Under the pieces are notes generated by a model. It was not told the origin of the DNA and ran no database searches. It worked only from the letters and a program-made list of their open reading frames with translations. From positions 1 to 64,000 of IMG/VR virus record IMGVR_UViG_3300048583_000274: a stretch of 64,000 bases of DNA; one strand, written 5' to 3'. Positions 12,665-19,070 of this stretch are shown here, in pieces. A program made the translations under genes and the position numbers. This DNA is from a virus. How positions within the stretch are numbered: position 1 is the stretch's first letter; each line of letters opens with the position of its first letter.

Positions 12665-13636
12665 TTATTCATCTAACAGTTCTATAACTACTCCTCTTAT
12701 TCTTCTTGAACTTCTCCAAATAACAACAGGAGAGTTTACTTCATGGGCATCTGCTGCCAATATGTGGTCTAAGTCAATTTCAAGAGTTTCTTCCTCTTCA
12801 TCCCAAATATCATAATCATAGTCTATATGGGTAGACTCTTCTTCTTCATCTGAGTAAAATAAAGCTTCCTCTTCAATACTTAATTCTTCTGTAGGTGGTA
12901 CAAAAGAAGGCACAGGAGGGGCAATAGGGTAGGGAATTTCTGTTACTATTTTTCTAACATTTAATTTTTCTTCAAAAGTGTCCTCTTCTTCTGAGCAAAA
13001 TATATTAGGTAAAACAGTATTTAAGTAGTCATGTAGACCTGTTAGAGTTGTGGTTTTCTTGATTTCAAAAACTCTTGCGAAGGTATTTTTTTCTATTTGA
13101 GCAGAGGGCATTAATTTGACCTCTATACCTTTTATAAAGCAAGTGTTAACAAGTAATTCGGGTTGAAGCTTTCTGCTTAATGGGCTATGTTTTTTCTCTG
13201 TGAGTAGTTCACTAGCATACAAAAGAACTAATTTAGAGTAGTCTATAGTATGAAGACTTCTTAACTCTCTAATTAAATCTTGGTCTAAAAAATCTTTTTG
13301 TCTAAGAGTAATAATAGCTAAAGGCTCTCCTTTGTCAGTAAAGATAGCATTAAACATAATAAAATAAGTCTGAGAACCTATTTTTATAGTTCTTGGATTA
13401 GATTCCATACCACTAAACAAAGAGATTATATTTTTTATTGTATTACTCCTTGTTCTTAACTCCGAAGAATTAAAAAGAGGTTTAGTATAATAAAAAAGAT
13501 CAGGATGTTTAGAAAAACGTCTTATATTAGAAACAACATAAGTAGGGACATATTTATTAAGTATAGCTGAAGTTACTGTATAAGGGTCTTCTTCAGGATA
13601 ATAATGATTAAACTGATAAGAATAAAAAAGTTCCAT
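12665..13636 (-). CDS. hypothetical protein with highly acidic C-terminal region
   Basis: 323-aa ORF immediately downstream of, and abutting, the ThiF-like gene. It contains DEEEESTHIDYDYDIWDEEEE. Confidence 0.5.
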   Translation of the reverse strand: MELFYSYQFNHYYPEEDPYTVTSAILNKYVPTYVVSNIRRFSKHPDLFYYTKPLFNSSELRTRSNTIKNIISLFSGMESNPRTIKIGSQTYFIMFNAIFTDKGEPLAIITLRQKDFLDQDLIRELRSLHTIDYSKLVLLYASELLTEKKHSPLSRKLQPELLVNTCFIKGIEVKLMPSAQIEKNTFARVFEIKKTTTLTGLHDYLNTVLPNIFCSEEEDTFEEKLNVRKIVTEIPYPIAPPVPSFVPPTEELSIEEEALFYSDEEEESTHIDYDYDIWDEEEETLEIDLDHILAADAHEVNSPVVIWRSSRRIRGVVIELLDE

Positions 13637-14325
13637 TATAACTCAAGATTAGTTAAACACATAGGTACCATAAACTCATAGTAAAAAGGAACATCTCTTA
13701 CAACTTCTCCCATATATTCATTAGTCAAATGATTAGTGAAGAAAGAAGCCATTAAAGAACCTATCATAGCAGCAGTATGAGAAGTTTGTTTCATAGTACA
13801 AGGAGCATCAGGAACATTACTATCTGCAAATAAGTGTTCTATTTGGTACTTGTTAGCAGTAGCAGGAGTAACACAAAATACTTGAAGTTGTTCCATTTCT
13901 AATCTACCATCTATAAAAATAGGAGTGATATGGCTAGGAGTATGAGGCCAAGACTTTTTCCATAAATGGAAAAGAGTGTGTCTAGCTTCCATATTATCAA
14001 AAGCTGAAAAAGCATAATAATGAGTAGTAGTATCAAAAGTAAGAGCTTCATTGATAGGAGCTATCTCTACATCACAAAACTCAGCAAGAATCTCAGCTAC
14101 AGCACTTACTTTAGGAGTTCCTATACTTTTTTGAAAAAATAATTGTCCTCCTAAATTATGATCTTCAACTGTATCAAAATCATATAAGTACACTTTAATT
14201 CCTATTTTAGCAAGGAAATAAGTTAACCATGAACCTATTCCTCCTGCTCCTCCCACTAAAGCTAGCTCCCCTTCTTTAGGAAGCCATGGAGCATCTTTAA
14301 ACCTCTGTCTTTGTTCTGTATTCAT
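13636..14325 (-). CDS. ThiF/MoeB/E1-like adenylyltransferase-fold protein
   Basis: Rossmann signature LALVGGAGGIGSWLTYFLAKIGIKVYLYDFDTVEDHNLGGQLF (GxGxxG ... DxDxV...NLxxQ). Confidence 0.75.
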   Translation of the reverse strand: MNTEQRQRFKDAPWLPKEGELALVGGAGGIGSWLTYFLAKIGIKVYLYDFDTVEDHNLGGQLFFQKSIGTPKVSAVAEILAEFCDVEIAPINEALTFDTTTHYYAFSAFDNMEARHTLFHLWKKSWPHTPSHITPIFIDGRLEMEQLQVFCVTPATANKYQIEHLFADSNVPDAPCTMKQTSHTAAMIGSLMASFFTNHLTNEYMGEVVRDVPFYYEFMVPMCLTNLEL

Positions 14326-15556
14326 CTTTAATAAATTTATCTAAGGTTTCTCCTAATACTTCTTTAGTCTTTAAAATTTCCGGGTAACTTTGAGCCTCTT
14401 CTTCTAAAACATCTAAAATCCATTCTGTAAAAAGAATAAAATGGTCTTTATCTCCATCAGGATAGAAATCATTGTAAAGAGTCATGTAATTTGAAATAAC
14501 TTTTTGAGCTATATCAAAAGGACTTAACCCTGCTAAAGCATTAAGCATGCTATAATAATTAGAAGCTTGGTCTCCTATTAAAGCAACATTCTTAAAGTTA
14601 AACAGATTAGTTACAAAAACATCAATTTCTAATTGTTGTTCTTGTGCTTCTAAATCTTCTATTTCTTCTTCTTCTAGAACTTGATGTAAAGGAATATCAG
14701 GATCTATTTTCCAACTGTCTTCATCAAAAACATTTTTAGGGTCAAAAGAAGCATTCCAAGATTCCATTTCTCTTTGCTCTTGAGTTTTTTTGAACTTATT
14801 GTATCCTAATTGTTTAGGATTTCCTTTAGTAGGAATTTGTAAATTAGTTCTAACAGGAAAAACATTGTGAACAGCTTTTACAGGCTTAGGTTCCATAATT
14901 TTAGCAACTCTTTCTGCAAAGATATCTTCCACTACAATTTCTGTTTTAGGAGAGATGATTTCACAATCATAAGTAAACAATTTTTGAGTCTTTACTTCAA
15001 AATTTTGTTTCTGAATTACATACTTTTTACCTGAAGAGTCCATAGCAAAATAAGATACATTAGGAATCTCTTTGTAAGCTTCTCCAATGAAAGCTACTTT
15101 AGCCATAAAATCCATGTAATTGTTTACAATTAAAGAAAGGTAAAAGTTATGAGAAGGAGCATTATCATTCAATTCTCCCATATCTACTCCTGAAAAGAAT
15201 ACTCTCATAACATTATGAGAATGAATGTGACCTAATTTCCAAGTACATCTTTCTTCAAAATCTTCTTCAATAAAATCAATAAATCTTTCATCTAAGTTAT
15301 ACTCAGTATAACCTGCAGTCCCCATATCTAAAGGGAGAATTGTTTTTAAGATTATCTTGAAAGTTTCCGGTTTGTCAATACTACCCTCTGTAGTATAAAA
15401 TAAAGCTCCGGACCACTCTACTTTAGGTATATTTTTACAAAGATATTGTATTTGATGAAATACTGTTTGATTCATTTCTATTGGAATTATAGGCTTTAAC
15501 TCTATAATTTTCAATTGTTTCTTTGTATATTTGATATTCGAGTTCTCTAATGACAT
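14297..15556 (-). CDS. JAB/MPN (JAMM) metallopeptidase-domain protein
   Basis: Exact JAMM motif HSHNVMRVFFSGVD (HxHx7Sx2D) with an upstream Glu (EWSGALFY). A ~250-aa acidic C-terminal extension follows. The N-terminus overlaps the upstream ORF by 41-122 nt, depending on which start is used. Confidence 0.75.
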   Translation of the reverse strand: MSLENSNIKYTKKQLKIIELKPIIPIEMNQTVFHQIQYLCKNIPKVEWSGALFYTTEGSIDKPETFKIILKTILPLDMGTAGYTEYNLDERFIDFIEEDFEERCTWKLGHIHSHNVMRVFFSGVDMGELNDNAPSHNFYLSLIVNNYMDFMAKVAFIGEAYKEIPNVSYFAMDSSGKKYVIQKQNFEVKTQKLFTYDCEIISPKTEIVVEDIFAERVAKIMEPKPVKAVHNVFPVRTNLQIPTKGNPKQLGYNKFKKTQEQREMESWNASFDPKNVFDEDSWKIDPDIPLHQVLEEEEIEDLEAQEQQLEIDVFVTNLFNFKNVALIGDQASNYYSMLNALAGLSPFDIAQKVISNYMTLYNDFYPDGDKDHFILFTEWILDVLEEEAQSYPEILKTKEVLGETLDKFIKDEYRTKTEV

Positions 15557-16670
15557 TTTCTATGAATTTAGGGTGTAATACAAGGTCTTGACTTTTTAAA
15601 TCAATAGTAGTATTAGGATTATTTTTTAAAACTTTAGGGTACACTTTTTTTCCTTTAAAAATAATGTAATCTGTAAAGGGATAGTGTTTTGGATCAGCTA
15701 GGGTTTTTTTAACATCTCCTCTTACATAACTATTACTATTAGGAACTCTGTAGACAACAATGTTTGAAGTAAAAGTAATATTGTTAGAAGTTGAAGTAGC
15801 TAATCTATACATAGAAAGAAAAAAAGTTTTTGCCTTATCATCATTGTAAATTTTATAATGATGATTTGAACAATAAAAATTCAAGTCAAGTTTTACTTTC
15901 TGATTTATTAGAAAAATAACAAAATCTTTTGCTTTTTCTTGAAAAAAACTATTTTGTAAATCATCAACAGGAGTATACTGACTTAAATGTACCCTAGACA
16001 TTCTATTGTAAGGAACTCCTTCTAAAGATTCCCATTTAAGCATACTATCTACAAGAAAAAAGAAAGCTTCATATTTTTCTAAGGAAAAGTTACTTGTTAA
16101 GTCAAATTCACAATTTCTTATATCTGTATCCGAACCTAAACAAAAGATATTTGGAACATTACACTCTGATAAAAAGTTACGAGAAGGTAAGTGGCTATGT
16201 AAATGCTGAGCTTGAAGTTCAGCTTGAGTTACACAAAATCTAAGTCCTTTCATACTTTCTAGTAAAAGATTAGCACGAGACTGTTTTACTTTAAAAGTAT
16301 ACACTACCAATAAATCCTTAATAGTATGTTTTTTACCTAGACTATTTACAACTTCTAATTTTGGGTATAGAACAGTAATAACAGGAATAAAAACTGCCTC
16401 TTCTTTGATAAAATTTACATCTACATTTTCTTTATGTTGAAGTCTTAAAATATCTAGTACTTGTAGAAACTGCTCTAAAACTTGTTTATCAACTTTTTCT
16501 GCATAAAATACAAACCCTGTTGAAGAAGGCTTAAAAGGAAAATTTATCAAGCCTAAATCAAAAGCTTTTGTAAGGAAATTAGAAGTAGAATGGAGATTAG
16601 TAAGTTGAGCATTATGAATAAGTTTTTCTGCAGGATAGGGAAACTCATTAAGATTATTTGTTAGTTTCAT
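15435..16670 (-). CDS. hypothetical protein (candidate E2-like component)
   Basis: 411-aa ORF directly upstream of the JAB/E1 pair. The segment HSHLPSRNFLSECNVPNIFCLGS faintly resembles the E2 HPN...C(L) region. This is inference only. Confidence 0.5.
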   Translation of the reverse strand: MKLTNNLNEFPYPAEKLIHNAQLTNLHSTSNFLTKAFDLGLINFPFKPSSTGFVFYAEKVDKQVLEQFLQVLDILRLQHKENVDVNFIKEEAVFIPVITVLYPKLEVVNSLGKKHTIKDLLVVYTFKVKQSRANLLLESMKGLRFCVTQAELQAQHLHSHLPSRNFLSECNVPNIFCLGSDTDIRNCEFDLTSNFSLEKYEAFFFLVDSMLKWESLEGVPYNRMSRVHLSQYTPVDDLQNSFFQEKAKDFVIFLINQKVKLDLNFYCSNHHYKIYNDDKAKTFFLSMYRLATSTSNNITFTSNIVVYRVPNSNSYVRGDVKKTLADPKHYPFTDYIIFKGKKVYPKVLKNNPNTTIDLKSQDLVLHPKFIENVIRELEYQIYKETIENYRVKAYNSNRNESNSISSNTISL

Positions 16671-16689
16671 TTTATAAGATTAAAAATTA

Positions 16690-16719
16690 AAACCCTTACC
16701 TAAGTTAAGATAAGGGTTT
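16690..16719 (-). terminator. Rho-independent terminator (possibly partial)
   Basis: Stem aaaccctta (16690-16698) / taagggttt (16711-16719). The minus-strand RNA is followed by UAAUUUUUAAUC. It sits between ORF 16730..17512 and ORF 15435..16670. Confidence 0.5.
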
Positions 16720-16729
16720 ATAAAAAATA

Positions 16730-17512
16730 TTATCTGTAACCTTGCATCATTTCTCTAGCTTCTCTCTCAACAATTTCTTGTTCAGTTTCTTCTTTTACTT
16801 CCGGAGCTTTGTTTTCCTCTTCAAAGTCTGTACAAGTCTCAAGGATAAAATCTTTTTGTTCTGAAGCAGGAAGAGTCTCAGCAATGCTTTTGATTAACTT
16901 GAATTTTTCTTCCTCTGACATATCAGAAACAACTTGAGTAGGCCCTACAGGAGAAGTAGCTTTAGGCTCTTTAGCTACAACAGCTTTAGGCTCTTTCTTT
17001 TCAGCTACTTTTTTCACTACCTCAACTACTTCAGCCACAGCAGGTTTAGAAGCTTTAAGAGTACCATTACTTGAAGTATTTCCTGAGTAAGAATTCCATA
17101 AGGTTCTTAACTCTTCTGTTCCTTTAGTAGTGTAGTTTTTTCCTTGATTAAAGTGAGCTTTTGCTTCATCCGGGTTAGAATTAACAGCTTCCTGAATGTT
17201 AGCTCTCAATTCTTTGTAACTTAACTCTGCTCCGGACTTAGTTTGTTTAGGTCTAAGGAATAATCTGAAGTTTCCTTCAGGTAACTTAGCTAAATCATTA
17301 ACAAGGTCAGCTCTATTGATGTTTTCAGCAGCAAGTAAGCTATTCAAATCAAAACCTTGTCTTTGAACTAGGGGTTTTAATTCTCCCCAAGTTGAGACAG
17401 CAGTTGTAATTTTTTTCATTTCACCACCTCTAGTGGCATAGATTGTTATCTCTCTTTCAAGAGTAACAGGAGTTTGTACTTCACTCATTGTTTTTGTTAT
17501 TAAGATTACCAA
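16730..17512 (-). CDS. hypothetical protein with beta-grasp/ubiquitin-like N-terminal pattern and charged low-complexity tail
   Basis: The probable start is MSEVQT (ATG at 17488). Residues ~20-95, ITIYATRGGEMKKITTAVSTWGELKPLVQRQGFDL...GNFRLFLRPKQTKSG, mimic the ubiquitin strand/helix pattern (compare LHLVLRLRGG). A K/E/P/A/V-rich region follows. Confidence 0.5.
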   Translation of the reverse strand: MVILITKTMSEVQTPVTLEREITIYATRGGEMKKITTAVSTWGELKPLVQRQGFDLNSLLAAENINRADLVNDLAKLPEGNFRLFLRPKQTKSGAELSYKELRANIQEAVNSNPDEAKAHFNQGKNYTTKGTEELRTLWNSYSGNTSSNGTLKASKPAVAEVVEVVKKVAEKKEPKAVVAKEPKATSPVGPTQVVSDMSEEEKFKLIKSIAETLPASEQKDFILETCTDFEEENKAPEVKEETEQEIVEREAREMMQGYR

Positions 17513-18048
17513 TTGATTGTTTTTTGTCCTTTCTTTTTCAGAATGACATTTACATATTCTAAGTTGTTAACATAAATTCCTCTGAATATGTAATTATAAT
17601 CTTCATTTAAAGGGATAAGTTGAATAGTTTCATCTGTATACCTTTGCACATTAAAAATAGATTTTCTAGGAAGATTAGCAATAAATCTTTGTGCTTCATG
17701 ACTAGGAAATAGCCAAATGCAAGGATTACTCCTAGCAATAAAATATAATACTGTCTTTAAGAAAGATTCCCAATATGGGGCATGATCTATAGTAACTCCA
17801 CTAGTTAGAGACAGAGGTAGCCAAAATAGGCCTTGTTCCTCTTTTTCCCTTATGTTGGGAAGCTTTGCAGATCCTACTAATACAACTTTAATTGAAGATA
17901 CCGGCATAGAAAAAACCCTGAAAACTTTATCAGCTTCAGGGTAATATTTTTCTTTAGGCAAGATTTCATATTTAAAGAAGAGGAATTCATCAGTATTTAA
18001 TTCTTTAAGGATAGGAGTCCAAGAATGATGAATTATGCTTTTATTCAT
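17506..18048 (-). CDS. uracil-DNA-glycosylase-fold protein with degenerate active site
   Basis: It aligns by eye to family 1 UDG: YYPEADKVFRVF (YPPxxDVFxAF), IKVVLVGSAKLP in place of VKVVILGQDPYH, GLFWLP (GLAFSV), and YWESF...WLFPSHEAQ (GWExF...LLWGSHAQ). Confidence 0.55.
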   Translation of the reverse strand: MNKSIIHHSWTPILKELNTDEFLFFKYEILPKEKYYPEADKVFRVFSMPVSSIKVVLVGSAKLPNIREKEEQGLFWLPLSLTSGVTIDHAPYWESFLKTVLYFIARSNPCIWLFPSHEAQRFIANLPRKSIFNVQRYTDETIQLIPLNEDYNYIFRGIYVNNLEYVNVILKKKGQKTINW

Positions 18049-19070
18049 AAAGTAAACTGCTTTATAAAATGTTGAAAGTACTGTGGCTCTTTAGCTCTAC
18101 AGTCTGAAGGGTCTTTTACTCCAAACTCTAAGCCCCTCTCAGGTAGCCATAGATTCTTAGCTTTCCCCGGAAACATGCTATTTATCTTTTGTTTGATTTT
18201 TTCTGAGGCTATTATCCCGGCTTGATCATTATCAAACCATACAATGACATTAACAAAATGTCTAACCAAAGAATAAAGGATTAAGTCATTGGGAATCATT
18301 CCCTCATTTTGAAACCAAACAACATTTTTACCCATGTTTTTAAGTACTCTGTAATCCTTGTAACCTTTAGTAATAATAAGTTCTTGCCCATACATAGGTA
18401 AAAGATGTATACCACCTATATCATCTTTTGTACAATTAGTTAGGAACCTTTTACTGCCGGTTTTTTTAGGAAAATAAACCTTCTTTCTACTATCAGCAAA
18501 CTCAGTATAAGTATAAGTGAAGGGATCACAATTTATTACATGACTTCCTGTTTTAGTATTGAGAAGGTATAATTTAGAGGTAGGGAAAACTTTGTCTTCT
18601 ATAAGATTTGGTTTTGTTATTCCATAAGGAGTGTAAAATCCTTTATCTAAGAGGTTAAAAGCTCTTGCTTCTATAATTAGCTTCACTCTCTTCTTTTCTG
18701 TTCTTACAGTGTCTTCTTTGACCACTATAGAAGGTAATCTGTCTTTACCTTGTATTAAGGTTGCATAGATATACTCTAGAGTCAAATAGAAGTTAGGAAT
18801 TTTGAAGTAGTCTTGGACTAAGTTAAAGCAATCACTATGAGTTCTAGTATGCCCAAAGTCTATAAAATAAAGAATACCATTTGTGTGATAACTAAACCAA
18901 CATCCCGGACTCTTATCTATTCTTAAAGGGGAAACTACATAATCAAACTCTTTTGGAATGTAATTAAGAACAAGAGAAAAGATTTCCTCTTGTGATACCA
19001 ACTGTAATATAGCTTCTTTACTAATAAAACCTCTTCTATGTATAACATCAGATGTATAGTTAAAAGTCAT
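18045..19070 (-). CDS. DNA primase (TOPRIM domain)
   Basis: TOPRIM pattern: ELIITKGYKDYRVL (conserved Glu) and VIVWFDNDQAGIIASEKI (DxD). It lies adjacent to other replication genes. Confidence 0.6.
   Translation of the reverse strand: MTFNYTSDVIHRRGFISKEAILQLVSQEEIFSLVLNYIPKEFDYVVSPLRIDKSPGCWFSYHTNGILYFIDFGHTRTHSDCFNLVQDYFKIPNFYLTLEYIYATLIQGKDRLPSIVVKEDTVRTEKKRVKLIIEARAFNLLDKGFYTPYGITKPNLIEDKVFPTSKLYLLNTKTGSHVINCDPFTYTYTEFADSRKKVYFPKKTGSKRFLTNCTKDDIGGIHLLPMYGQELIITKGYKDYRVLKNMGKNVVWFQNEGMIPNDLILYSLVRHFVNVIVWFDNDQAGIIASEKIKQKINSMFPGKAKNLWLPERGLEFGVKDPSDCRAKEPQYFQHFIKQFTL

Follow-up and report, generated by a model that had tools for sequence, protein, structure and literature searches.

A conserved four-gene cassette encoding an E1-like protein, a JAMM peptidase, and a predicted ubiquitin-like precursor in the replication module of crAss-like phages

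Organization of the cassette and its surroundings

This study analyzed a 64,000-nucleotide stretch of viral DNA (the window; positions 1 to 64,000 of IMG/VR record IMGVR_UViG_3300048583_000274). The virus is crAss-like and is a relative of Flavobacterium phage FpV4. Four tightly packed genes, here called P4, P3, P2, and P1 in reading order, lie on the minus strand at 13636-17512 within the replication block, and all four open reading frames (ORFs) listed in a preliminary description of this DNA were present (Table 1). The longest ORF of P4 begins with a TTG at 17512. A 59-nt gap separates P4 from P3, P3 and the JAB gene P2 overlap by 122 nt, P2 and the ThiF-like gene P1 overlap by 29 nt, and P1 overlaps the following ORF, ORF X, by 1 nt. 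A positional orthologue of ORF X was present at nearly all related loci, and jackhmmer matches were obtained in Flavobacterium-type loci; family searches with ORF X returned no match, and its alignment with the same-position ORFs of Crassvirales is doubtful. ORF X is named here as a possible fifth member of the cassette.

The replication-module setting noted earlier was borne out by the neighbors, among them the primase, the UDG-like gene, a PD-(D/E)XK exonuclease, and a resolvase of the RusA-like type. The primase invariably precedes the cassette, whereas the position of the UDG-like gene is movable.

Table 1. Positions of the genes, domains, and motifs of the cassette and its neighbors in the window
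Feature	Position	Strand	Basis or remark
ORF X	12665-13636	-	fast-evolving; translationally coupled to ThiF
P1 (ThiF/E1-like)	13636-14325	-	229 aa; ORF
P2 (JAB/JAMM)	14297-15556	-	419 aa; ORF
P2 JAMM zinc-site motif, H112-S-H114-x7-S122-x2-D125	15182-15223	-	invariant in homologues
P2 catalytic Glu, E47	15416-15418	-	invariant in homologues
P3	15435-16670	-	411 aa; ORF
P3 candidate active-site loop, H158-S159-H160 to F176-C177	16140-16199	-	invariant residues; AF2
P4 (predicted Ubl precursor)	16730-17488	-	252 aa from ATG at 17488
P4 K84-S85-G86 tail, predicted processing/adenylation site (after Gly86)	17231-17239	-	conservation
P4 predicted ubiquitin-like beta-grasp domain, residues 1-86	17231-17488	-	AF2 + Foldseek
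UDG-like gene	17506-18048	-	upstream of cassette
DnaG-type primase	18045-19070	-	upstream of cassette; PHROG 12622, 4e-82

A minimal E1-like protein and a JAB/JAMM peptidase

P1 contains VGGAGGIGSW and DFDTVEDHNLGGQ, the ThiF/MoeB/E1 signature that had been read from the sequence, and it matched Pfam ThiF well above the gathering score (2.9e-16, 59.8 bits against 28.1). The hhalign comparison with MoeB gave 96% (E 4.8e-9), the best PDB matches were UBA3 and MoeB, and the closest curated relatives were ThiF PRK08644 (53 bits), thiF_fam2, and MoeB. The protein retains GxGGxG (G26/G28/G29) and D49/D51; K72 corresponds to MoeB K86, and D110-N-M-E-A-R115 corresponds to MoeB D130/R135. At the NRQ motif, P1 has G60 instead of the arginine (MoeB R73) that almost all active adenylation domains possess. 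This glycine was invariant in 26 ThiF homologues, in agreement with the earlier observation of a minimal E1 with an altered NRQ motif, and because the replacement is family-wide, ATP-dependent adenylation by P1 is not assured. Cys176, within P-C-T-M-K-Q-T, was also invariant; the sequence pattern suggests that it may be the counterpart of the E1 crossover-loop cysteine, in a region beyond residue 145, at which the hhalign alignment ends. Collectively, the sequence solidly identifies P1 as a minimal E1-like (ThiF/MoeB-type) enzyme with predicted adenylating activity, which is probably a homodimer.

GenBank records of FpV4, Fpv1, cr111_1, and crAss001 carry the product name "thiamine biosynthesis protein ThiF," and the best NCBIfam match of P1 was the ThiF model. 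A role in thiamine biosynthesis is nevertheless highly improbable. The equivalog cut-off is 159 bits, and P1 reached only 53; ThiG, ThiH, ThiC, ThiE, and ThiS-family matches were absent from the cassette and its flanks, and P1 is accompanied by a JAB peptidase and by two proteins that are phage-specific.

P2 carries a JAMM motif consisting of EWSG (E47) and HSHNVMRVFFSGVD (H112-D125), as previously reported. The JAMM residues were invariant in 22 close and 28 divergent homologues; such invariance indicates that the JAMM and ThiF motif matches are not due to chance. A total of 1,704 P2 homologues were found, and Prok-JAB PF14464 was the top Pfam match in 8 of 10 divergent ones. The PADLOC JAB model matched P2 with an E-value of 0.012, and hhalign aligned the P2 core to the HxH..S..D of Rpn11. 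The core spans approximately residues 28-225, and the C-terminal domain behind it is helical and conserved; the JGI call is a 392-aa form that starts at M28. The non-JAB part, previously described as an acidic extension of approximately 250 aa, measures about 195-250 aa, according to the residue chosen as the end of the core, but it is acidic in part only. P2 is therefore solidly assigned by sequence to the JAB/JAMM (MPN+) metallopeptidases, with predicted cleavage activity.

A predicted ubiquitin-like precursor

P4 has 648 homologues (PHROG 15560). Its predicted N-terminal beta-grasp is followed by a helical domain and a disordered linker rich in K/E/P/A, and the protein closes with an acidic C-terminal helix that is conserved and whose last residues are Gly-Tyr-(Arg). 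In the AF2 model, the N-domain consists of strands 12-18 and 25-29, helix 34-43, strand 46-55, a short helix 59-63, and strand 74-80. The pLDDT was 72-86 over the N-domain and 65.6 overall, a medium-confidence model. Almost all compact Foldseek matches were ubiquitin, SUMO, MoaD, or UBX structures (TM to target 0.5-0.62), including the FAF1 UBX domain 3r3m_C (probability 0.94, TM 0.62, rmsd 3.3), MoaD 6jbz_B (probability 0.92, TM to target 0.52), and ubiquitin (TM about 0.53), with every E-value above 0.06. The Pfam search returned no Ubl match, and hhalign gave no signal against Ub, NEDD8, ThiS, or MoaD. Structure prediction thus supports a ubiquitin-like beta-grasp fold in the P4 N-domain, and AF2 and Foldseek agree on the beta-grasp that had been suspected in this protein.

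The predicted domain ends in a Lys-Ser-Gly tail, in which Gly, Ser, and Lys were conserved in 100%, 97%, and 97% of 35 divergent homologues, respectively. One lineage (L040) has K-G-G, and nearly all members have Ser-Gly, not Gly-Gly. The residue directly after the tail glycine is variable, an indel hotspot lies immediately behind it, and the pLDDT minimum (62) of the ordered N-terminal half falls at the tail. The combination of K-[S/G]-G with an indel-rich linker looks like a processing site.

The large protein P3

P3 belongs to a very large family (3,250 representative clusters at 50% identity), and its AF2 model reached a pLDDT of 82.8 and a pTM of 0.75. Residues N109, S159, H160, C177, G179, E214, S215, G218, and P220 are invariant, as is the signature SH...C...ES; the candidate active-site loop lies between a four-stranded meander and the next helices. 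The 68 members analyzed showed no match to Prok-E2, UBC, or any other Pfam family, PDB sequence and fold searches returned no match, and the matches in BFVD were limited to uncharacterized crAss-like and podovirus proteins. The suggestion that this protein is E2-like was not upheld by Pfam, hhalign, or Foldseek: the hhalign comparison with UBE2D2 gave 1%, and no E2 was among the top 50 Foldseek PDB matches. P3 is an enzyme-like protein that occupies the gene position expected for an E2, and its fold class has no known match.

Conservation of the gene set

Among the 41 related loci fetched, the gene order was always Ubl, P3, JAB, and E1, with one locus truncated. All 36 viral and GenBank loci had this order, as did four of five loci from metagenome-assembled genomes (MAGs); the fifth, truncated locus shows JAB-ThiF alone. 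In the cultured gut phage crAss001, the cassette corresponds to gp79-gp76 in the same order. ThiF and JAB are carried by the same 74 phage records, as judged by count and genus breakdown. The strict four-gene synteny extends across highly diverged phages that infect hosts of different groups, and the cassette belongs to the conserved core and is not a variable accessory region. Our literature search found no prior description of this cassette.

This conservation bears on the possibility that the phage Ubl/E1/JAB set blocks Ubl-based host immunity (type II CBASS Cap2/Cap3, Bil, or Bub), with the JAB deconjugating host Ubl or CD-NTase conjugates or with decoy conjugation. A virome preprint has speculated that a phage UBA5-like family may be connected with antiphage ubiquitination-like systems (doi 10.64898/2026.03.05.709809). 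Searches with defense models revealed weak similarity to a Cap2-type E1-E2 (approximately 29 bits), BilD (E 0.0012), a Cap3-type JAB (E 0.012), and the 6A-MBL cap2_3 model; however, each of these similarities is far below family level. Anti-defense genes are usually variable accessory genes, whereas this cassette is a fixed and syntenic part of the replication-module core. Moreover, a deconjugase alone would be sufficient for this purpose, yet the Ubl, E1, and P3 are conserved along with it. We consider this explanation quite improbable, and of the two roles raised in the preliminary description, counter-defense or a replication-linked function, the conserved core block argues against the former as the primary function.

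Comparison with known systems

The cassette is not a PRTRC, Bil, CBASS, or Bub system. Similar to PRTRC (TIGR03734-03741), it is a multigene cassette of a mobile element in which a ThiF-family protein has JAB-like and Ubl-like partners, and a resemblance in gene order had been suggested. However, the PRTRC_ThiF score of P1 was 30.1 bits, with the cut-off at 144.75, and the PRTRC A-E and ParB models matched no cassette neighbor; membership in PRTRC is therefore rejected. The four components of Bil (BilA-D) are likewise a Ubl, a JAB, an E1, and a fourth enzyme, and its Ubl has a C-terminal Gly. In contrast to the 229-aa P1, BilD is a large IAD-AAD-CYS E1, and BilB, unlike P3, is a recognizable E2; the BilA, BilB, and BilC models found no match, and Bil defends the host against phage, whereas the cassette is the phage's own. 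Type II CBASS shares an E1-like adenylation protein and a JAB isopeptidase, but Cap2 is an E2-E1 fusion with no equivalent in the cassette, and the substrate in CBASS is the CD-NTase C-terminus, whereas a dedicated Ubl is predicted here.

Type I Bub (6E.1) comprises BubAB (a Ubl-E2 fusion), BubCD (a JAB-E1 fusion), and BubE (PMC11601596). The BubCD JAB domain cuts the BubAB fusion after a conserved Gly, and a comparable release of an N-terminal Ubl by the JAB of the same operon may occur in the cassette; the E1 of Bub is also of the minimal, homodimeric ThiF/UBA5-like type (PMC11601596). The region downstream of the Ubl is an E2 in Bub and a helical charged region in P4, and the JAB and E1 are coupled in both, being fused in Bub and encoded as separate proteins by overlapping genes in the cassette. 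BubCD has no E1 Cys and uses oxyesters, whereas the Cys of P1 is invariant (PMC11601596). Bub includes DUF6527/BubE, for which the cassette had no Pfam match, P3 was unrelated in every test run, and Bub lies in a bacterial defense island rather than in a phage replication module.

Phage TAPI of lambda and T1 consists of a Ubl whose beta-grasp ends in a conserved Gly, a low-complexity linker, and a C-terminal domain, and the JAB of the adjacent TAPK, a JAB + NlpC/P60 protein, is predicted to release the Ubl (PMC1779556). TAPI/TAPK lacks an E1 and belongs to the tail-morphogenesis module, and no sequence relationship to the cassette was detectable. A pro-domain has been proposed for lambda TAPI, and the JAB could similarly strip a chaperone or regulatory beta-grasp pro-domain from P4, freeing its C-terminal part as the product, such as a replisome-associated hub; the Ubl would then never be conjugated, and P1 and P3 would be structural or regulatory. 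The folded N-domain, basic/acidic linker, and aromatic-ended acidic helix of P4 resemble hub proteins with C-terminal docking tails, the primase always adjoins the cassette, and the missing arginine of P1 is compatible with noncatalytic Ubl binding. Nevertheless, in highly diverged phages P1 has kept GxGGxG, the Asp residues for ribose and Mg binding, the Lys, and the Cys, which is difficult to reconcile with a nonenzyme; the polar and nucleophilic invariant residues of P3 point to catalysis, and the strict linkage of the four genes suggests a single pathway. Such maturation is rather unlikely in our assessment.

The closest sequence relatives of P1 belong to the ThiF-ThiS and MoeB-MoaD sulfur-carrier pairs (and CysO/Mec+); as in these systems, the E1 of the cassette is minimal and is probably a homodimer. 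In a sulfur-carrier pathway, the Gly of the processed and adenylated Ubl would be converted to a thiocarboxylate with host sulfur (IscS/rhodanese), and P3, as a new sulfurtransferase, would thiolate a nucleotide, DNA, tRNA, or small molecule for replication. This possibility agrees with the ThiS/MoaD adenylyltransferases as the closest curated relatives of P1 (MoeB by hhalign), MoaD among the best fold matches of P4, the invariant Cys of P3, the surrounding DNA-metabolism genes, and JAB/Ubl/E1 trios known in sulfur incorporation, such as CysO/Mec+ and the gene neighborhoods described in PMC1779556. By contrast, P1 lies under every equivalog threshold, far so for NCBIfam ThiF and MoeB (53 vs 159 and 32 vs 266), and lacks the NRQ arginine, and P4 has Ser-Gly, inside a precursor, instead of the Gly-Gly typical of sulfur carriers. 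The cassette also contains no rhodanese, cysteine desulfurase, PP-loop ATPase, or cofactor-synthesis partner, and P3 had no family match. We know of no report of thio-modification in crAss-like phages of this type, and we regard the sulfur-carrier pathway as unlikely.

Proposed pathway and implications

We propose, with about an even chance of being correct, that the JAB cleaves the precursor after Gly, the E1 activates this Gly, and P3 acts downstream. P4 would be synthesized as a precursor comprising the beta-grasp domain up to Lys-Ser-Gly, the variable linker, and the helical charged C-terminal region. P2 would cut directly behind Gly86 and yield two products, a Ubl of approximately 86 residues whose C-terminal Gly is free and a C-terminal fragment. 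With ATP, P1 would adenylate the Gly, and the Ubl would then probably be transferred to Cys176. The Ubl would be handed to or used by P3, a crAss-group-specific protein with a Ser-His...Cys...Glu-Ser constellation, which may serve as a noncanonical E2, a ligase, or an acceptor. The JAB may have a second role in reversing conjugates.

Because the Ubl/JAMM/E1/P3 set has been kept together, crAss-like phages appear to encode, next to the DNA primase, a ubiquitin-like activation system of their own. Since this fixed core block adjoins the primase, a factor in replication or host takeover would be a more likely target than a defense protein that is strain-specific.

A conserved four-gene cassette in the replication module

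The window is phage sequence of low GC content (~31%), and a 94.7-kb JGI contig encodes proteins identical to those of the window. Its closest cultured relatives are the Flavobacterium psychrophilum phages FpV4/Fpv1 (Fipvunavirus), with ~69% DNA identity over part of the region and 58% identity in the ThiF protein. Four consecutive genes encode a putative ubiquitin-like (Ubl) precursor (P4), a 411-aa protein (P3), a JAB protein, and a ThiF-like E1 protein; the reading frames overlap by 122 nt at P3/JAB, by 29 nt at JAB/ThiF, and by 1 nt where ThiF adjoins ORF X. Every motif quoted in the preliminary description was found in the window, and its placement of the cassette among replication genes was borne out by primase, UDG-like, RusA-like, and PD-(D/E)XK exonuclease neighbors.

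Features of the window and of related loci (handles beginning with L denote loci fetched for comparison)
Feature	Position	Strand	Basis
Primase	18045-19070	-	flank family assignment
UDG-like gene	17506-18048	-	flank family assignment
P4 (putative Ubl precursor)	16730-17488	-	ORF
P4 C-terminus	16730-16800
P3	15435-16670	-	ORF
P3 3' end / JAB 5' end	15435-15556
JAB-like gene	14297-15556	-	ORF
ThiF-like gene	13636-14325	-	ORF
X, 323-aa ORF without assigned family	12665-13636	-	ORF
RusA-like gene, then PD-(D/E)XK exonuclease	beyond X in the same tight run	-	flank family assignment
E1-like gene with acidic N-terminal extension	L004:7701-8711
E1-like gene with acidic N-terminal extension	L042:5754-6905
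E1-like gene with acidic N-terminal extension	L038:8182-9234
E1-like gene with acidic N-terminal extension	L037:8091-8975
P3 gene, 709-aa product	L040:4678-6807
Interruption of a cassette gene (ThiF)	L005:8396-9202
Interruption of a cassette gene	L002:4652-5401
CRISPR-like array	L038:72-5250

Gene linkage was mapped by running HMMs, built from the alignments of this analysis, over every fetched locus. The results revealed that P4, P3, JAB, and ThiF are contiguous and in one order in 36 of 36 loci (4 GenBank phage and 32 IMG/VR), and crAss001 keeps this order as gp79-gp78-gp77-gp76. The primase always directly precedes the cassette, the UDG gene aside, which is mobile or missing among the loci. 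A tblastn search with ThiF returned 74 phage records, and a Crassvirales JAB query also returned 74 with an identical genus breakdown. The Crassvirales matches in this collection were crAss001-like phages (Steigviridae); prototypical crAssphage gave no tblastn match to the ThiF or JAB queries at the sensitivity used. Among 185,579 species genomes scanned, the cassette matched 5 MAG contigs only; four kept the P4-P3-JAB-ThiF order, and the fifth, which is truncated, shows JAB-ThiF alone. A cellular origin was rejected because the contigs with enough flanking sequence have phage-type neighbors.

The E1-like protein

The 229-aa ThiF-like protein matched Pfam ThiF (PF00899) over residues 23-203 with 59.8 bits (gathering score 28.1; E 2.9e-16). 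Its best solved relatives were UBA3 and MoeB, and hhalign aligned it with E. coli MoeB at 96% probability; the Pfam and MoeB matches uphold the E1-like (ThiF/MoeB) identity first proposed. Across 26 divergent homologues, GxGGxG (G26/G28/G29), D49/D51, K72, and D110-N-x-x-x-R115 were invariant, with K72 aligned to MoeB K86 and D110/R115 to MoeB D130/R135. The glycine motif serves nucleotide binding in this superfamily, in which an Asp binds the ribose and the Asp equivalent to MoeB D130 binds Mg. The arginine of the N-x-x-R-Q motif (MoeB R73) contacts the ATP phosphates and is near-universal in active adenylation domains. This arginine is replaced in the window protein (N57-L-G-G60-Q61), and the Crassvirales homologues read N-[LM]-S-G-Q where MoeB has N-L-Q-R-Q. 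The glycine already reported at this position is thus present in the window and, as G60, invariant across homologues.

Cys176 is also invariant, within P-C-T-M-K-Q-T (I-C-S-Y-K-Q-T in crAss001). The catalytic-Cys motif of eukaryotic E1s is P-x-C-T-[IL]-[KR]; the Cys176 segment resembles it, which makes this residue a candidate catalytic cysteine of the crossover loop, as an E1~Ubl thioester would require. Because the profile alignment with MoeB ends at residue 145, the equivalence is at the level of pattern.

GenBank labels the protein 'thiamine biosynthesis protein', and a cassette devoted to thiamine synthesis would agree with that name. The scores against the ThiF equivalogs NF006395, TIGR02354, and TIGR02356 were 53, 40.6, and 31.6, respectively, against cut-offs of 159, 152, and 275, and every score against the NCBIfam ThiF, MoeB, and PRTRC_ThiF models was far under its cut-off. 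The label is therefore unsupported, and we consider a role in thiamine synthesis extremely improbable.

The E1-like proteins of crAss001, DAC15, and some MAG loci carry an acidic N-terminal extension of ~65 to 150 aa, from which the 229-aa Flavobacterium-type form is free.

The JAB protein

The JAMM motif that had been noted in the second protein is complete (E47, H112-x-H114-x7-S122-x2-D125) and does not vary among the 22 close or the 28 divergent homologues. The window protein itself had no Pfam match, and a profile search against PDB sequences returned nothing useful; the PADLOC JAB model matched residues 24-138 (E 0.012). Prok-JAB (PF14464) was the top Pfam match in 8 of 10 divergent homologues (E 6.5e-5 to 0.08), the best score of 23.2 bits lying just under the gathering score of 25. 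When the core was aligned with Rpn11 by hhalign, the motifs lined up at a probability of only 1.7%, which is negligible because both profiles are shallow. The crAss001 counterpart, gp77, is annotated in GenBank as 'metalloprotease domain containing protein'. We regard the identification as a JAB protein as secure at the level of the sequence signature.

The putative Ubl precursor

P4 opens with ~135 strongly conserved residues, after which come a low-complexity K/E/P/A linker and an acidic C-terminal helix that is likewise conserved. The AF2 model had an overall pLDDT of 65.6 (medium), with 72-86 in the N-domain. It placed strands at residues 12-18 and 25-29, a helix at 34-43, a strand at 46-55, a short helix at 59-63, and a strand at 74-80, so that residues 12-80 have the beta-beta-alpha-beta-(alpha)-beta order of the beta-grasp fold; a dip in confidence and a helical domain come thereafter. 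When the model was compared with the PDB by using Foldseek, the compact matches were nearly all beta-grasp proteins (Ub, SUMO, MoaD, UBX, ISG15, and Hub1), with probabilities up to 0.95, TM to target of 0.5-0.62, and no E-value under 0.06. Examples are MoaD (probability 0.92), FAF1 UBX (probability 0.94; TM to target 0.62; rmsd 3.3 A), and ubiquitin (TM ~0.53). The element order and the matches agree with the N-terminal beta-grasp region first described, and the N-domain is predicted to adopt a ubiquitin-like beta-grasp fold. In sequence searches, profiles run against PDB sequences returned nothing useful, the Pfam Ubl families ThiS, MoaD, Prok_Ub, and ubiquitin had no match in 10 divergent members, and hhalign against Ub, NEDD8, ThiS, and MoaD gave probabilities of <=0.2%. 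An SSB-like, OB-fold reading of P4, prompted by the disordered linker and acidic tail, was rejected because the N-domain matches the beta-grasp fold and not the OB fold.

An alignment of 35 homologues from Flavobacterium phages, Crassvirales, and MAG contigs gives K-[S/G]-G as the predicted Ubl tail, with the Gly conserved in 100%, the Ser in 97%, and the Lys in 97%. In L040, a related locus, the tail is a classical Gly-Gly. The residue after the Gly varies, and directly beyond it lies a hotspot for indels of 0-7 residues. Judged from the alignment, this combination marks a Ubl C-terminus that is embedded within a precursor; because the Gly is internal, cleavage would be needed. A scheme in which the E1 acts on the extreme C-terminus of P4, similar to MccB, was rejected because the end residues vary by lineage (GY(R), FVD, FVGR) and the internal Gly is invariant.

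The P4 C-terminus is an acidic amphipathic helix, which is conserved and has an aromatic residue close to its end (...EAREMMQGYR), located after a disordered lysine-rich linker; the crAss001 and DAC15 proteins end in ...INKMFDFVD and ...IDDMFSFVGR, respectively. This helix resembles the docking tails of SSB-type hub proteins. An alternative centered on this region is that the cassette serves pro-domain maturation only, namely that of the C-terminal part of P4. The hub-like layout of P4 can be set on one side of this proposal, and the conserved active-site residues of the E1-like protein and the strict linkage of the four genes on the other; we find it distinctly improbable.

P3, an enzyme-like protein in the position of an E2

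The AF2 model of P3 had a pLDDT of 82.8 and a pTM of 0.75. In order, it comprises a long helix, a four-stranded antiparallel meander, a loop with H158-S159-H160 and F176-C177, three helices of which the last two are separated by W-E-S-L-E-G-x-P, a second alpha/beta domain, and a long C-terminal helix. The family is very large, with 3,250 representative clusters when grouped at 50% identity. In 68 members with a mean column identity of 18%, S159, H160, C177, G179, E214, S215, and P220 were invariant; a second, divergent alignment confirmed these residues and added N109 and G218.

The preliminary description had put this protein forward as a candidate E2. None of the 68 diverse members matched any Pfam family, with Prok-E2/UQ_con absent at E <= 0.05, and P3 had no PHROG annotation and no PDB sequence match in a profile search. 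Foldseek returned nothing from the PDB at E <= 0.001 and no E2 in the top 50, and its BFVD matches were uncharacterised crAss-like and podovirus proteins only. The hhalign comparison with the verified UBE2D2 sequence gave 1% probability over 13 columns, and PADLOC found no Cap2 E2 or BilB match. With no profile match and no UBC fold match, the E2 assignment was rejected as unsupported.

Weak fold matches were obtained to the RWD proteins Ctf19/Mcm21 (E 0.03-0.3) and to the GCN2 RWD (probability 0.25; TM to target 0.44). RWD domains are members of the UBC-like superfold. In P3, S159-H160 and C177 are 17 residues apart, in the loop after the meander, compared with ~8-10 for the HPN...C of E2 enzymes. 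As modeled, the succession of elements and the placement of a His...Cys loop beyond the meander are consistent with an E2-like core and are not diagnostic of one. We treat this resemblance as a lead and not as a result, and P3 is therefore called an enzyme-like protein of unknown class in the position of the E2.

We also considered a sulfur-carrier pathway that runs through a thiocarboxylate and uses P3 as its sulfurtransferase. MoeB and MoaD appear among the matches of the E1-like protein and of the P4 model, respectively; the former protein scored far under the MoeB family cut-off, and P3 matched no Pfam family. We judge such a pathway unlikely.

The P3 of L040 has 709 aa, with an N-terminal extension of ~300 aa; this locus, the one with the Gly-Gly tail, belongs to a divergent and apparently higher-GC lineage.

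Variation within and around the cassette

The P3 3' end and JAB 5' end are read in different frames, and most related loci share an overlap of ~120 nt. Homologues with the long JAB start conserve its N-terminal 27 residues; JGI called a shorter M28 start. The overlap possibly reflects real dual coding or translational coupling.

X has an acidic C-terminus and is translationally coupled to ThiF by the 1-nt overlap. Nearly every locus has a fast-evolving ORF at this position, for example gp75 in crAss001, and X matched no family. It may be a fifth cassette component; it is a positional orthologue, with alignment-based homology established as far as the Flavobacterium-type group.

Several loci have interrupted cassette genes. 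A LAGLIDADG-type ORF of 268 aa interrupts ThiF in L005, ~280 nt split it in L035 and L036, and P3 is split in L023. In Fpv1, Fpv2, and Fpv20, JAB is split at approximately residue 110-117, just before HxH, by an opposite-strand 'endonuclease' gene. These repeated breaks look like homing endonuclease or intron invasion of highly conserved genes.

L038, from a Bacilli MAG (JBMNLZ010000002.1, a 640-kb contig), carries a complete P4-P3-JAB-ThiF cassette and a CRISPR-like array in which a ~37-nt repeat, GTTTCAATCCTTGTTTTAATGGATCTTGCTCTCGAAT, occurs at least 70 times with a period of ~73 nt. The array reaches the P4-like ORF and intrudes on the called 5' end of this ORF. The arrangement may be a chimera, joined where a spacer matched a protospacer, or it may come from a very large phage or element that carries such an array.

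The UDG-like gene, whose position relative to the cassette differs among lineages, encodes a short protein (180 aa) with V-G-S-A-K-L-P at the family-1 UDG catalytic G-Q-D-P-Y-H loop, and the DAC15 homologue retains G-Q-D-P-Y-P. The protein of the window lineage is probably catalytically dead.

Comparison with known systems

The cassette would work most like type I Bub, with a looser likeness to Bil. Type I Bub comprises a JAB-E1 fusion without a crossover-loop Cys, a Ubl-E2 fusion, and the DUF6527 protein BubE. In the cassette, however, JAB and E1 are separate genes, the E1 has an invariant Cys, the region after the Ubl is modeled as helical and charged rather than as a UBC fold, and no Pfam match to DUF6527 was found. 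Among the Bil profiles, BilD matched the ThiF protein (E 0.0012; 15.6 bits), and BilA, BilB, and BilC had no match in the cassette. The gene order had been likened to PRTRC; PRTRC_ThiF scored 30.1 bits against a cut-off of 144.75, and neither PRTRC proteins A-E nor the PRTRC ParB-related protein had a match in the neighbors, so this likeness does not extend to membership. Membership in PRTRC, Bil, Bub, CBASS Cap2/Cap3, or thiamine-ThiF was rejected on these and the corresponding thresholds. A counter-defence role against Bil, Bub, or CBASS was also considered; the cassette is a fixed block among replication genes, and we consider this explanation quite improbable.

Proposed pathway

The most economical reading, to which we give an even chance, is that the cassette serves to process and activate a Ubl. 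JAB would cut P4 after the invariant Gly, the E1-like enzyme would adenylate the freed Gly, probably with a thioester at Cys176, and P3, downstream of both, would be either the acceptor or a transfer enzyme of a non-canonical type. Two precedents speak for this reading. In type I Bub, the BubAB Ubl fusion is cut by the JAB domain of BubCD immediately behind a conserved Gly (PMC11601596). In lambda and T1, TAPI is a Ubl-linker-domain protein whose release by the TAPK JAB is predicted (PMC1779556). On the other side, the E1-like protein lacks the near-universal arginine, the Ubl fold is a prediction, and P3 is without a class assignment.

A more far-reaching proposal, which we offer tentatively and think rather doubtful as a whole, is that crAss-like phages encode a complete autonomous Ubl conjugation pathway as a core of the replication module. 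P3 (SH...C...ES) would represent a new family of transfer enzymes with no relation, or at most a very remote one, to E2 enzymes, and the target would be a replisome or host protein, through which phage DNA replication is controlled. Such a pathway would be carried by the Flavobacterium FpV4 group, by Steigviridae (crAss001 among them), and by uncultured relatives numbering in the thousands.

No description of the cassette was found in the open-access literature. The nearest trace is a passing mention of a UBA5-like gut-phage protein family in a 2026 virome preprint, and GenBank already carries separate 'ThiF' and 'metalloprotease' annotations. The finding corrects the misleading annotation 'thiamine biosynthesis protein ThiF', now widespread in crassvirus records. 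Both crAss001 (gp76-gp79) and phages of the FpV4 group are in culture, which makes the cassette directly testable. It belongs to the replication-module core of a phage group that is among the most abundant in the human gut, and its P3 represents a very large, unassigned enzyme-like family with neither a Pfam model nor a recognizable fold. CBASS Cap2/Cap3, Bil, and Bub have so far been characterized as bacterial anti-phage weapons; the cassette would be their converse, owned by the phage.
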